A stretch of 38,307 nt of DNA, taken from a virus. Taxonomy: Duplodnaviria; Heunggongvirae; Uroviricota; Caudoviricetes. Below are positions 32,759 through 34,870 of this stretch, piece by piece; positions within the stretch are counted from its first letter, which is position 1, and each line of letters begins with the position of its first letter. Below the pieces are notes generated by a model, which searched no databases, had not been told where the DNA came from, and saw only the letters and a program-made list of their open reading frames with translations. The position numbers and the translations under genes were made by a program. The DNA is taken from IMG/VR virus record IMGVR_UViG_2657245439_000017. One strand, written 5' to 3'.

Positions 32759-32953
32759 ATGATATTTAAATGTATTCAGTGCGAGAGGGATATAACAGCC
32801 CTGCGTTTTCACAGCGCCATCGCCGTGATGTCCGGTAAATACCACATCCCTGCGGTACGCGTCACCCTGGTCTGCCCGTACTGCAGCCAGCATTTTTCGG
32901 CAGACGTGCCCGTCATGGAATTCTCCCGCCCTGACAGGGAGGACTCGCAATGA
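32759..32953 (+). CDS. Small zinc-ribbon protein (CxxC ... CxxC)
   Basis: 64 aa; CIQC and CPYC pairs; strong RBS AGAGGAGAA. Confidence 0.55.
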   Translation: MIFKCIQCERDITALRFHSAIAVMSGKYHIPAVRVTLVCPYCSQHFSADVPVMEFSRPDREDSQ

Positions 32954-33222
32954 TTACCCCACAGGAAGCACGACAGCGCACCCGAACCCTTGTTGAACAC
33001 TATGTCAACGAGTGTGAATGCCGCGACCTCACCGATGTGAAGCACGTCCTGACGGCGCTAATCAGCATGACCGCTCAGGCCATTGTGGCGACCAACGGAA
33101 AGGCGGCTGCCCTGCAGGTACTGGTGAACACACTCACCCACACGGCAGAGCATGAGGTGCCGTACCGGATGGAAACCACTGCAGAAGGCGGCCTGCACAT
33201 CACCGTCAGCCGGAAGCACTGA
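32950..33222 (+). CDS. Hypothetical early protein (90 aa)
   Basis: GGGAGG RBS; ATGA overlap with upstream gene. Confidence 0.5.
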   Translation: MITPQEARQRTRTLVEHYVNECECRDLTDVKHVLTALISMTAQAIVATNGKAAALQVLVNTLTHTAEHEVPYRMETTAEGGLHITVSRKH

Positions 33223-33231
33223 GGGCGCGGC

Positions 33232-33528
33232 ATGACACGGAACACCATACTCACCCGCACCGCCCTCTACCGTCTGGCCCTGCAGCGTTTCGGGCCGGAC
33301 GCACAGGCCCTGAAACTGACAGAAGAGGCCGCTGAACTGGCGGCCAGTGCTGCCCGCAATCTGAACGGACAGGGCAGCGAAAGTGACCTCGCGGCAGAGC
33401 TGGCAGACGTGGAAATCATGACAGAGCAATTGCGCCTTCAGGGGATGGACCGGCTGATTGACTTCCACAAACAGAAAAAACTGGAACGTCTGGCTGCACG
33501 ACTGGGCGTGATTTACACGAACGAGTAA
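33232..33528 (+). CDS. Possible MazG-like nucleotide pyrophosphohydrolase (small all-helical)
   Basis: 98 aa; motif pattern KLTEEAAELAASA ... DLAAELADVEIMTEQL resembles the EExxE ... ExxD signature of MazG/HisE-like proteins. Confidence 0.4.
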   Translation: MTRNTILTRTALYRLALQRFGPDAQALKLTEEAAELAASAARNLNGQGSESDLAAELADVEIMTEQLRLQGMDRLIDFHKQKKLERLAARLGVIYTNE

Positions 33529-33542
33529 CCGGGAGGCATTCA

Positions 33543-33758
33543 ATGGCTGACATACTCAGGGAAATCACCGCATGGACACTGATTCTTACTGGCCTGGCGA
33601 CATGCCTCAGTGCGGGGGCAGCCCTGGCTGCCCTGCTGATGCACATAACAACACAGTGGTTATGGGAAAAGCTTAAAGCAGCATACAGCCTGAAAGAGCT
33701 GTCCGACGCTGTCCGGGCATGGAAACGGCAGAAAAATACCGGAGATACAGAACAATGA
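33543..33758 (+). CDS. Small membrane protein (71 aa, one TM)
   Basis: TM WTLILTGLATCLSAGAALAALLM; GGGAGG RBS. Confidence 0.5.
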   Translation: MADILREITAWTLILTGLATCLSAGAALAALLMHITTQWLWEKLKAAYSLKELSDAVRAWKRQKNTGDTEQ

Positions 33759-34438
33759 CAGACCAGAATAAACACATTGAGAAACTGAAAAAGTTGCTGG
33801 CGCTGGCCGCATCCGGCAACCCGCACGAGGCCGCTCTGGCACTGCGCCGAGCCCGTAAACTGATGGATGTTCACGGCATCACACATTCCGACATTGCTAT
33901 GAGTGATATTGATGAAACCATCAGTCATTACTGGCCGACAGGCAGTCTCCGTCCACCGCGCTACATGCTGGGCCTGATGAACATCATCCGCGAGGCATTT
34001 GGTGTTAACTCCATCATTCACCCCGGCACGCATCCGTCTGTGGGGTTCTACGGTAACCGGGAACGAGCGGCACTGGCTGCGTACACCTGGGAAGTGCTGG
34101 TCCGCCAACTGAAAAAGGCGCGTCAGCAGTATATCAGCGCACAGAACAAAAGAATAAAAAACGCCACCCGTACCAGCCGTGGAAACCAGTTTGCTGAAGG
34201 CTGGGTACTGGCCGTTATCAGTGAAATACAGTCCTTTGCCCTGACCGATGATGAGCGTGAACTGATGCAACAGTGGCTGGAACATAAATACCCGCAAACG
34301 CAAACCACCAGGGCGCGTAAACCGGGAAGAAGCCGCAATGGCGACGCCTCGCGCTATGCGGGGTTTCGTGAAGGGCAGAACGTCAGACTGCACCGCCCGG
34401 TCAGTGGGCAGGAACAACAGAAACTGGAGGCCAGATGA
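33755..34438 (+). CDS. Hypothetical early protein (DUF2786-like N-terminal helix motif)
   Basis: ATG 33755 with GGAG RBS (track ORF starts earlier at 33719); N-terminal IEKLKKLLALAASGNPHEAALALRRARKLM motif common in phage/plasmid proteins. Confidence 0.55.
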   Translation: MTDQNKHIEKLKKLLALAASGNPHEAALALRRARKLMDVHGITHSDIAMSDIDETISHYWPTGSLRPPRYMLGLMNIIREAFGVNSIIHPGTHPSVGFYGNRERAALAAYTWEVLVRQLKKARQQYISAQNKRIKNATRTSRGNQFAEGWVLAVISEIQSFALTDDERELMQQWLEHKYPQTQTTRARKPGRSRNGDASRYAGFREGQNVRLHRPVSGQEQQKLEAR

Positions 34439-34665
34439 TTACGCTATCAGGTAACAGCCGGAAATTAAAAGCCTGCCGAATATCTGCCAGATACCTTTTT
34501 GCCCGCGCCTTTTTTAAGAACGTCAGGCCGGGGATCACAATTGGTGTTATTGCCGGACGCGAACAGGTTGAAAAATACATGTCAGGTGCATGGTGGAATA
34601 ACGACCCTGTCATTGCTGCCCGTAATATTCATATCAGTTGGGGGGATATTCAGAATGACGGCTGA
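34435..34665 (+). CDS. Hypothetical small protein (76 aa)
   Basis: ATG with CTGGAGG RBS, overlaps upstream stop. Confidence 0.45.
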   Translation: MITLSGNSRKLKACRISARYLFARAFFKNVRPGITIGVIAGREQVEKYMSGAWWNNDPVIAARNIHISWGDIQNDG

Positions 34666-34870
34666 ATCTGTTGTATGTGCCCTGTTCTGGTATTGTTTTG
34701 TCGGTTGGTGTACTGCTGAACTGCACCGCCGTTCAGGGTTTTATTCACGTTACAGTGGTGCCGGCTACTGGATTAGCTGGTCGGTGATGTTCCTGTGCTG
34801 GCCTGTGGCGCTTCCTTTATATGTCGATTATATCGGTGGCGCAGGTAAAAGGAGCAACGATGATGACTAA
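34655..34870 (+). CDS. Small Trp/Cys-rich membrane protein (71 aa)
   Basis: ATG 34655 after GGGGGGA; hydrophobic segments VVCALFWYCFVGW and WISWSVMFLCWPVALPLYV. Confidence 0.45.
   Translation: MTAESVVCALFWYCFVGWCTAELHRRSGFYSRYSGAGYWISWSVMFLCWPVALPLYVDYIGGAGKRSNDDD

Follow-up and report, generated by a model that had tools for sequence, protein, structure and literature searches.

Seven early genes between gam and gemA in a BcepMu-like prophage of Escherichia coli: gene map, a MazG-like candidate, and the anti-defense question

Seven co-oriented open reading frames (ORFs) fill positions 32759–34870, between gam and gemA/mor, of a 38,307-nt viral sequence (hereafter the window), raising the question of whether they form a set of anti-defense genes or an accessory stretch serving other ends. 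The element that carries them is a BcepMu-like transposable prophage inserted in dosC of E. coli. It shares 97.7% identity with Escherichia phage PhiKM and has the BcepMu-type layout, in which the early arm is encoded on one strand and the late genes on the other. Directly upstream of the block lies gam (32131–32661; Pfam Phage_Mu_Gam in relatives), which encodes a RecBCD inhibitor, and downstream follow gemA (34863–35312) and then mor (35284–35673). The semi-essential region of coliphage Mu (kil, gam ... gemA, mor) occupies the same early-operon position, 3′ of the transposition genes and gam, and like the block it consists of small genes that are closely packed and for the most part dispensable. 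By Pfam, gam, gemA, and mor are homologous between Mu and the prophage. Unlike Mu, the phage is BcepMu-type, we found no homology of the seven block proteins to named Mu genes, and many relatives of the prophage carry DUF3164 instead of gam. A sequence-only reading had taken the block, 3′ of gam, for early accessory genes of a Mu-like phage, and both the identity of the prophage and its gene order bear this out. In our judgment the block is probably the variable accessory (“semi-essential”) part of the early operon in a Mu-like prophage of the BcepMu type that is common in E. coli. Of 5426 complete E. coli genomes, 640 contain the block, with many clinical isolates among the carriers. The prophage family is a common one; PhiKM, a plaque-forming relative, makes genetic study of the block genes possible.

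All seven ORFs are on the plus strand: P1 (32759–32953, 64 aa), P2 (32950–33222, 90 aa), P3 (33232–33528, 98 aa), P4 (33543–33758, 71 aa), P5 (33755–34438, 227 aa), P6 (34435–34665, 76 aa), and P7 (34655–34870, 71 aa). RefSeq/PGAP makes the same seven gene calls in an identical copy. ATGA overlaps join P1/P2, P4/P5, and P5/P6, P6 and P7 overlap by 11 nt and P7 and gemA by 8 nt, the only two intergenic gaps in the block measure 9 and 14 nt, and GGAG-type purine-rich stretches precede the starts, in agreement with the tight coupling and strong ribosome-binding sites described earlier. The earlier description of seven small early genes holds in number and position, but not in size for P5. Starts set by the longest ORF, 33719 for P5 and 34499 for P7, were rejected in favor of 33755 and 34655 on overlap logic and PGAP.

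Against relatives at 55–90% protein identity, dN/dS was 0.11–0.31 for P1, P2, P3, P5, P6, and P7, and these six ORFs are under purifying selection. Since every one of the seven also matched a PHROG family over its full length, the ORFs are more than chance occurrences. P4 is the weakest coding case among them. Among the loci examined it had no diverged homologue and was not seen outside the E. coli lineage, and some natural variants of E. coli (e.g. L041 and L042) have lost it by deletion; P6 is missing from many relatives. These observations would fit a view of P4, and possibly P6, as remnants or spurious ORFs in a recombination-prone spacer rather than functional genes. We regard this as very unlikely, given that a GGGAGG Shine–Dalgarno sequence accompanies the P4 start codon, that P4 overlaps P5 by an ATGA, contains a clear predicted transmembrane helix, and matches a PHROG family over its full length, and that P6 shows a dN/dS of 0.13–0.17 at 75% identity with a strongly conserved core. 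P4 is dispensable.

Sequence comparison supports P3 as a minimal MazG-type (all-alpha) nucleoside triphosphate pyrophosphohydrolase at the superfamily level, the level at which the earlier MazG-like call is upheld by the EExxE...ExxD pattern, the PHROG match, and the family profile. The twin acidic motifs are intact (E31-E32-A-A-E35 and E56-L-A-D59): 23 close homologues show no change at E31, E32, E56, or D59, and 86 distant ones show none at E31, D59, or Q66, with conservation of at least 90% at E32, E35, E56, K83, and R86. P3 matches phrog_2245, “nucleoside triphosphate pyrophosphohydrolase”, with E = 2.8e-34, and its family is very large (10474 cluster representatives at E ≤ 1e-3). Profile and structure comparison gave a divided result, favorable for phrog_2245 and, transitively, for PF03819 MazG, which 23 of the 86 family members match (best 2.2e-5; four members match MazG-like and four PRA-PH), and less so for direct searches. 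P3 alone had no match above Pfam or NCBIfam thresholds (Pfam PRA-PH 14.5 bits, cutoff 21.3; NCBIfam hisI E = 0.035), a single-sequence search of the PDB returned spurious helical matches only, and the family profile reached marginal E-values there (0.005 for 5ie9, 0.03 for iMazG, 0.11 for YpjD). The AF2 model (pLDDT 81) contains one long unbroken helix, not a compact four-helix bundle, and its Foldseek similarity to MazG structures is weak (E 0.2–0.4, TM ∼0.45). Across structural and profile searches the top matches were iMazG, DCTPP1, Bacillus MazG, and YpjD. With solved minimal MazG/all-alpha NTP pyrophosphohydrolases P3 shares a length of ∼90–110 residues, an all-helical character, and the metal-binding motif; this solved set, likewise among the top structural and profile matches, comprises Sulfolobus SSO3215 (1vmg), integron iMazG (2q5z/2q73), Bacillus MazG (5ie9), YpjD (2gta), HisE (3c90), and human DCTPP1 (7mu5). 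The same family assignment is already reached by current RefSeq annotation.

MazG enzymes cleave the pyrophosphate bond of (d)NTP-like molecules. Because the cyclic oligonucleotides of CBASS and Pycsar and the ADP-ribose-derived signals of Thoeris are not (d)NTP-like, they are unlikely MazG substrates, and the earlier statement that the family can deplete signaling nucleotides is too broad. Atd1 of Pectobacterium phage PcCB7V, the one phage MazG-like protein reported as anti-defense, hydrolyzed ppGpp, unlike cyclic di-GMP or rNTPs; through this hydrolysis it is reported to counter TIR effectors, and it protects against TIR-STING and retron-TIR (bioRxiv 10.1101/2022.06.09.495361). Compared by description, P3 and Atd1 are both single-domain MazG-like phage proteins that carry twin acidic catalytic motifs and whose genes lie among accessory ones. 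A tblastn search of P3 against 50,697 phage records retrieved four records only, and because PcCB7V was not among them, the two are probably not close relatives. A cyanophage MazG hydrolyzed dGTP and dCTP, not (p)ppGpp (PMC6850273). Distant P3 family members occur in many phage contexts, adjoining replication/recombination genes or terminases, and some relatives of the prophage are without P3, which is thus not essential. P3 looks active and would most likely convert a (d)NTP-like nucleotide to its monophosphate and pyrophosphate during transpositional replication; the two likeliest roles would be cleaning or reshaping of the nucleotide pool, or removal of an alarmone that carries a triphosphate or pyrophosphate, for example (p)ppGpp.

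P1 is usually encoded directly 5′ of P3 and may act together with it. Its two CxxC pairs (C5-x2-C8 and C39-x2-C42), with all four cysteines invariant in 10 distinct homologues at ∼55% identity, are consistent with a putative zinc ribbon; this much of the earlier zinc-ribbon call holds, whereas matches to Pfam zinc-finger families all fell below threshold (Sgf11 at 19.2 against 26.4 bits; YnfU and Zn_ribbon_10 at E ≥ 0.047). P1 matches phrog_3401 over its full length (E = 1.6e-40) and has a dN/dS of 0.15–0.21. An apparent P1–P3 fusion (P0036, 166 aa) was rejected, as it came from long-read assemblies in which frameshifts break up the genes for transposase and MuB. P2 is a soluble protein that matches phrog_3691 (E = 2.7e-55), has a dN/dS of 0.14 against a Proteus relative, and is variably present, being missing from many of the gene architectures in relatives.

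Two small membrane proteins had also been proposed, and Kyte–Doolittle hydropathy is consistent with this for P4 and P7. P4 has one predicted transmembrane helix at about residues 10–34 (19-residue window maximum 1.98) and matches phrog_3958 (E = 1.1e-41). P7, likely a small membrane protein judging by its two hydrophobic segments (about residues 5–22 and 37–56; hydropathy maximum 1.51) followed by an acidic tail, matches phrog_6436 (E = 5e-15), has a dN/dS of 0.15–0.31, and is conserved in most relatives; the PhiKM allele is only 41% identical. Both may belong to the type of small membrane protein that phages use in host takeover or exclusion. P6 is a basic, variably present protein with the conserved core FARAFFKNVRPG...SGAWWNNDP and a match to phrog_3681 (E = 4e-54); as a membrane protein it was rejected on its hydropathy maximum of 0.96.

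P5 is shared by distant transposable phages. It is basic (pI 10.2) and consists of a DUF2786 helical hairpin at the N terminus, an alpha/beta core assigned to DUF7168, and a tail that is itself basic, and both Pfam families score above gathering (DUF7168 92.7 bits, cutoff 25.5; DUF2786 43.0, cutoff 23.9). Its relatives are early proteins of Pseudomonas Casadabanvirus (D3112/DMS3-like), B3-like, and Ralstonia transposable phages, at 34–37% identity over >89% of the length (hmmsearch E ∼1e-54), and these DUF2786/DUF7168 homologues hold the same position, between gam and gemA/mor-like genes. The homologues are uncharacterized, so the match shows conservation, not function. A literature search returned no papers for DUF7168 and incidental mentions only for DUF2786, and the P5 family profile found nothing significant among PDB sequences. 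Assignment of the core as a canonical KH domain was rejected, the similarity being KH-like but with no GXXG loop. P5 possibly binds nucleic acid as a conserved basic protein of transposable phages, and its conservation across distant members of this group would suit a role in the life cycle better than that of a fast-evolving anti-defense gene.

Among 65 GemA-anchored viral loci, the interval from the HI_1482-family gene to gemA showed 28 architectures. This slot, with variable content, fixed position, and conserved flanks, is a recombination-prone accessory module, and its gene set is modular and swapped among related phages. A PF04447 dATP/dGTP pyrophosphohydrolase (E = 5e-44; formerly DUF550, MazZ-type), at 163 aa larger than P3, stands in place of P3 in one locus (L095) and beside it in another (L074). 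Comparing the P3 family with this slot protein, hhalign gave no significant similarity (probability <1%), so the term non-orthologous replacement rests on Pfam names. The pattern suggests that selection at the slot is for nucleotide pyrophosphatase activity. In a further locus (L096) a Lar-like restriction-alleviation domain (PF14354, E = 2.1e-8) replaces P3, and a 152-aa slot protein of Dickeya matches phrog_1518, “host nuclease inhibitor” (E = 3.7e-19). Both of these genes occur in relatives only; within the window the flanking gam is the only known anti-defense gene. The clean gene map, the supported family assignment of P3, and the demonstration of the slot as an accessory module prone to recombination are the main yield of this analysis.

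What the accessory block does for the phage is a question on which several readings compete. Block genes may plausibly manipulate the host or host defenses. One reading, quite possible if not one we would favor outright, makes P3 an enzyme that cleans or shapes the nucleotide pool and plays no part in immunity, removing non-canonical or excess dNTPs (dUTP, dITP, oxidized dNTPs, or dCTP/dGTP) and so protecting or favoring the roughly hundred-fold replicative transposition of the phage genome, with the other genes serving unrelated takeover or exclusion functions. The best structural and profile matches of P3 are solved, characterized small MazG relatives; iMazG, DCTPP1, Bacillus MazG, and YpjD are house-cleaning dNTPases. 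The dGTP and dCTP preference of the cyanophage enzyme (PMC6850273), the PF04447 enzyme in the same slot, and the replication/recombination neighbors of distant family members point the same way. The substrate of P3 is not readable from sequence, however, the host already has Dut, MutT, RdgB, and MazG, and P3 is dispensable in some relatives. We are more doubtful that the block is a dedicated anti-defense island in which at least one of the seven proteins directly neutralizes a bacterial immune system, with P3 acting in the manner of Atd1 on (p)ppGpp or another triphosphate-type signal and P1, P2, and P6 as small inhibitors. It would account for the adjacent gam, a RecBCD inhibitor, for the mosaic slot content, and for the Lar-like and nuclease-inhibitor-like genes in the same slot of relatives, and it has a precedent in Atd1 (10.1101/2022.06.09.495361) and a possible target in dITP, the triphosphate immune messenger of the Kongming system (10.1101/2024.12.20.629578).

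Against such an island stand the lack of any match between the seven block proteins and a characterized anti-defense protein, the size and varied phage contexts of the P3 family, which fit a general metabolic role, the ancient conservation of P5, and the dN/dS range, which indicates ordinary purifying selection with no arms-race signature. The reported Kongming counter-measure, moreover, relies on a dNMP phosphatase rather than on a MazG (10.1101/2024.12.20.629578). PADLOC found no match among nine early proteins, as expected for counter-defense genes, and the main text of a catalogue of 268 anti-defense proteins mentions neither MazG nor Atd1. The most specific version, in which P3 (possibly with P1) destroys a pyrophosphate-bearing immune or stress messenger, (p)ppGpp or dITP, and the slot is an anti-defense reservoir (P2, P6, and P7), we consider improbable. 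If true, it would place such a reservoir in a prophage of ∼12% of sequenced E. coli. Should P3 or its neighbors counter immunity, the short list of enzymatic counter-defenses that act on nucleotides would grow, and the spread of transposable phages would be easier to explain.

A promoter/terminator scan gave no site within the block above shuffle expectation, and a strong sigma-70-like promoter is predicted at 27331–27359. The block is probably transcribed from near this early promoter along with the genes for transposase, MuB-like ATPase, and Gam, presumably at the onset of lytic growth. Its 5′ boundary is marked by a GC-rich hairpin at 32704–32740 (plus strand) in the 97-nt gam–P1 spacer, with a T-run 5′ of the hairpin. 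The hairpin was not scored as a terminator in the terminator scan and had no Rfam match, nor did Rfam match anything across 24000–38307. Its RNA fold has a z-score of −4.3, RNAalifold gives 15 pairs, one of them covarying, and 33 of the 36 distinct sequences taken from upstream of the block in relatives keep it at ∼90–95% identity, also where DUF3164 takes the place of gam as the preceding gene. Together with P5, this conserved hairpin 5′ of P1 is a small, concrete lead for work on Mu-like phages.

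The seven plus-strand ORFs that the sequence-only reading had placed downstream of gam (32759–34870) are borne out, and RefSeq carries the same seven genes: P1 (32759–32953), P2 (32950–33222), P3 (33232–33528), P4 (33543–33758), P5 (33755–34438; 227 aa), P6 (34435–34665), and P7 (34655–34870). Their junctions are ATGA overlaps, longer overlaps of 11 and 8 nt, and spacers of 9 and 14 nt, and purine-rich ribosome-binding sequences precede the starts; longest-ORF upstream starts for P5 and P7 were not used, the starts being set at 33755 and 34655, respectively. Compared with relatives from Proteus, Mixta, Erwinia, and Klebsiella phage KP12, P1, P2, P3, P5, P6, and P7 gave dN/dS values of 0.11–0.31, with synonymous sites near saturation, and these six are thus genuine protein-coding genes. 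P4 appears the weakest of the seven; its standing as a gene rests on a ribosome-binding sequence, the P5 overlap, a single strongly hydrophobic helix, and a PHROG match along its full length. No diverged P4 homologue was found in the related loci compared, and some E. coli variants carry a clean P4 deletion; in protein P0008, P3 is fused to the last P4 residues.

The early operon reads, 5′ to 3′, two HTH regulators, DUF3102, transposase (28885–30654, plus strand), MuB/ExeA-like ATPase, HI_1482-family protein, Gam (32131–32661, plus), the seven ORFs, GemA (34863–35312, plus), and Mor (35284–35673, plus). A near-consensus sigma-70 promoter (TTGACA-17-CATAAT, 27331–27359) lies upstream, divergent from the XRE-type repressor gene, and a sequence scan of the block found no promoter-like or terminator-like sites above shuffle expectation; we infer that transcription of the block genes belongs to that of the early operon.

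We sampled relatives by a GemA anchor, avoiding bias towards P3, and found 28 architectures among 65 viral loci with a complete interval. P1, P3, P5, and P7 recur most often in the slot; the presence of P2, P4, and P6 varies. Many relatives (loci L009–L021, L035 [KP12], and L074–L098) have a 203-aa DUF3164 protein in place of Gam, with the rest of the early operon conserved. A PF04447 dATP/dGTP pyrophosphohydrolase (E=5e-44) replaces P3 in L095 (3382–3873) and stands beside it in L074, suggesting that selection at this position acts on nucleotide pyrophosphatase activity. The same position holds a Lar restriction-alleviation domain protein (E=2.1e-8) in L096 (3459–4121) and small unknown ORFs in further relatives, and in Dickeya prophages gam and P3 are followed by a CxxC protein of 152 aa (L003:5281–5739) with a match to phrog_1518, “host nuclease inhibitor”. 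The three named genes are of recognisable host-interaction types. Such a pattern is that expected of an accessory, host-interaction module.

The MazG-like call for P3 stands at superfamily level, where profile, motif, transitive Pfam, and PDB-profile lines agree; together they support the putative family assignment, none being decisive singly. P3 matches phrog_2245 (nucleoside triphosphate pyrophosphohydrolase) at E=2.8e-34 and three further NTP-pyrophosphatase/MazG PHROGs weakly, and itself falls below Pfam and NCBIfam cutoffs (PRA-PH, 14.5 bits vs 21.3 needed). Its family is very large: at E<=1e-3 it counts 10474 cluster representatives (50% identity). Among 86 distant members aligned, E31, D59, and Q66 show no variation and E32, E35, E56, K83, and R86 are ≥90% conserved; these make up the EExxE...ExxD signature and downstream basic residues. 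Individually, these members match MazG (23/86), MazG-like (4/86), and PRA-PH (4/86) in Pfam; in the PDB, the family profile reached Bacillus MazG (5ie9) with an E-value of 0.005, integron iMazG with 0.03, and YpjD with 0.11. Newer PGAP annotation names the P3 protein, WP_001299260, NTP pyrophosphohydrolase family protein.

The MazG enzyme class cuts pyrophosphate bonds. The activity of P3 is putative and its substrate not readable from sequence, and the two phage MazG proteins characterised biochemically in the literature differ in substrate: Atd1, from Pectobacterium phage PcCB7V, hydrolyses ppGpp, leaves rNTPs and cyclic di-GMP intact, and protects against TIR effectors (10.1101/2022.06.09.495361), whereas dGTP and dCTP, and not (p)ppGpp, are hydrolysed by a cyanophage MazG (PMC6850273). 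The proposal that this family can deplete signalling nucleotides is therefore narrowed: cyclic oligonucleotides of CBASS and Pycsar and ADP-ribose-derived Thoeris signals are not expected substrates of this class because they are not (d)NTP-like. In a Proteus relative, a soluble 77-aa ORF (L006:5278–5511) follows and overlaps the P3 homologue in the P4 slot; in other genomes its counterpart forms an in-frame fusion with the MazG-like domain in 169-aa proteins (P0012, P0031), which points to a functional connection of the pyrophosphatase with the C-terminal domain.

P1 directly precedes and overlaps P3 in most relatives; the E. coli and Proteus lineages have P2 inserted between the two. P1 matched no curated family above threshold; C5/C8 and C39/C42 are invariant in homologues at ∼55% identity, supporting the putative zinc ribbon proposed earlier. 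The small membrane proteins also hold up as predictions, with one hydrophobic helix in P4 and two hydrophobic segments in P7; P6 is basic and not hydrophobic. P7 is conserved in most relatives (85–92% identity in several other genera), and the allele of Escherichia phage PhiKM is only 41% identical whereas neighbouring genes are 96–100% identical, which indicates allele replacement at P7 alone. P5 homologues (34–37% identity) occupy the same early-region position in Pseudomonas Casadabanvirus, B3-like, and Ralstonia phages; among transposable phages P5 is thus an early gene of long standing and wide conservation, which argues for a life-cycle role.

The gam–P1 spacer contains a GC-rich hairpin with a preceding T-run (32704–32740; region 32693–32752), showing ∼90–95% nucleotide conservation, far above flanking genes. 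Of 36 distinct upstream sequences, 33 carry the hairpin, including those where P1 identity drops to 55% and those where DUF3164 replaces gam. Its fold has a z-score of −4.3, and the consensus structure has 15 pairs, one covarying; Rfam gave no match. A terminator scan rejected it as a terminator. Possible roles are those of a module junction, a site of RNA processing, or an element controlling translation.

The slot content of relatives lends indirect, guilt-by-association support to the anti-defense idea, and such a reading of the block is a moderately plausible hypothesis. This content is no evidence of an anti-defense role for any of the seven genes themselves. Block dN/dS values are typical of ordinary conserved proteins, and distant members of the P3 family have ordinary phage surroundings, in replication or pre-terminase regions. 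The block is unsurprising to a phage specialist, because MazG-like genes are common in phages, P3 is already pipeline-named, and textbooks depict Mu-like phages with a variable accessory region after gam. The most useful leads are the P3 substrate, the recurrent P1–P3 pairing, and two conserved features, the P5 family and the hairpin before P1.

The window is E. coli chromosome with a BcepMu-type transposable prophage, late genes lying on the minus strand up to ∼24.6 kb and the early operon on the plus strand. PhiKM, classified as Bcepmuvirus, is 97.7% identical over a 2.4-kb stretch around the block, which occurs in 640 of 5426 complete E. coli genomes, mostly at 95–100% identity. Beyond the right end (∼35.7–36.07 kb) lie a 3′ fragment of a GGDEF-domain gene (36073–36291) and a PAS/GGDEF/EAL gene (36292 onward), which we take to be dosC and dosP; this copy appears inserted in dosC, and an otherwise identical copy in strain TUM1586 adjoins lpdA, as expected of a randomly transposing phage. 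Between lysis genes and repressor, a cargo region of low GC (0.43–0.46; 24726–26898) encodes a 158-aa P-loop-like protein (24726–25202, plus) and two membrane-anchored proteins (25240–25830 and 25912–26898, minus); Pfam and PADLOC scans of it gave no match of note. Both membrane-anchored genes immediately follow the XRE-type repressor gene (26895–27356, minus) on its strand; lysogens probably express them, and they are candidate superinfection-exclusion or defense genes.
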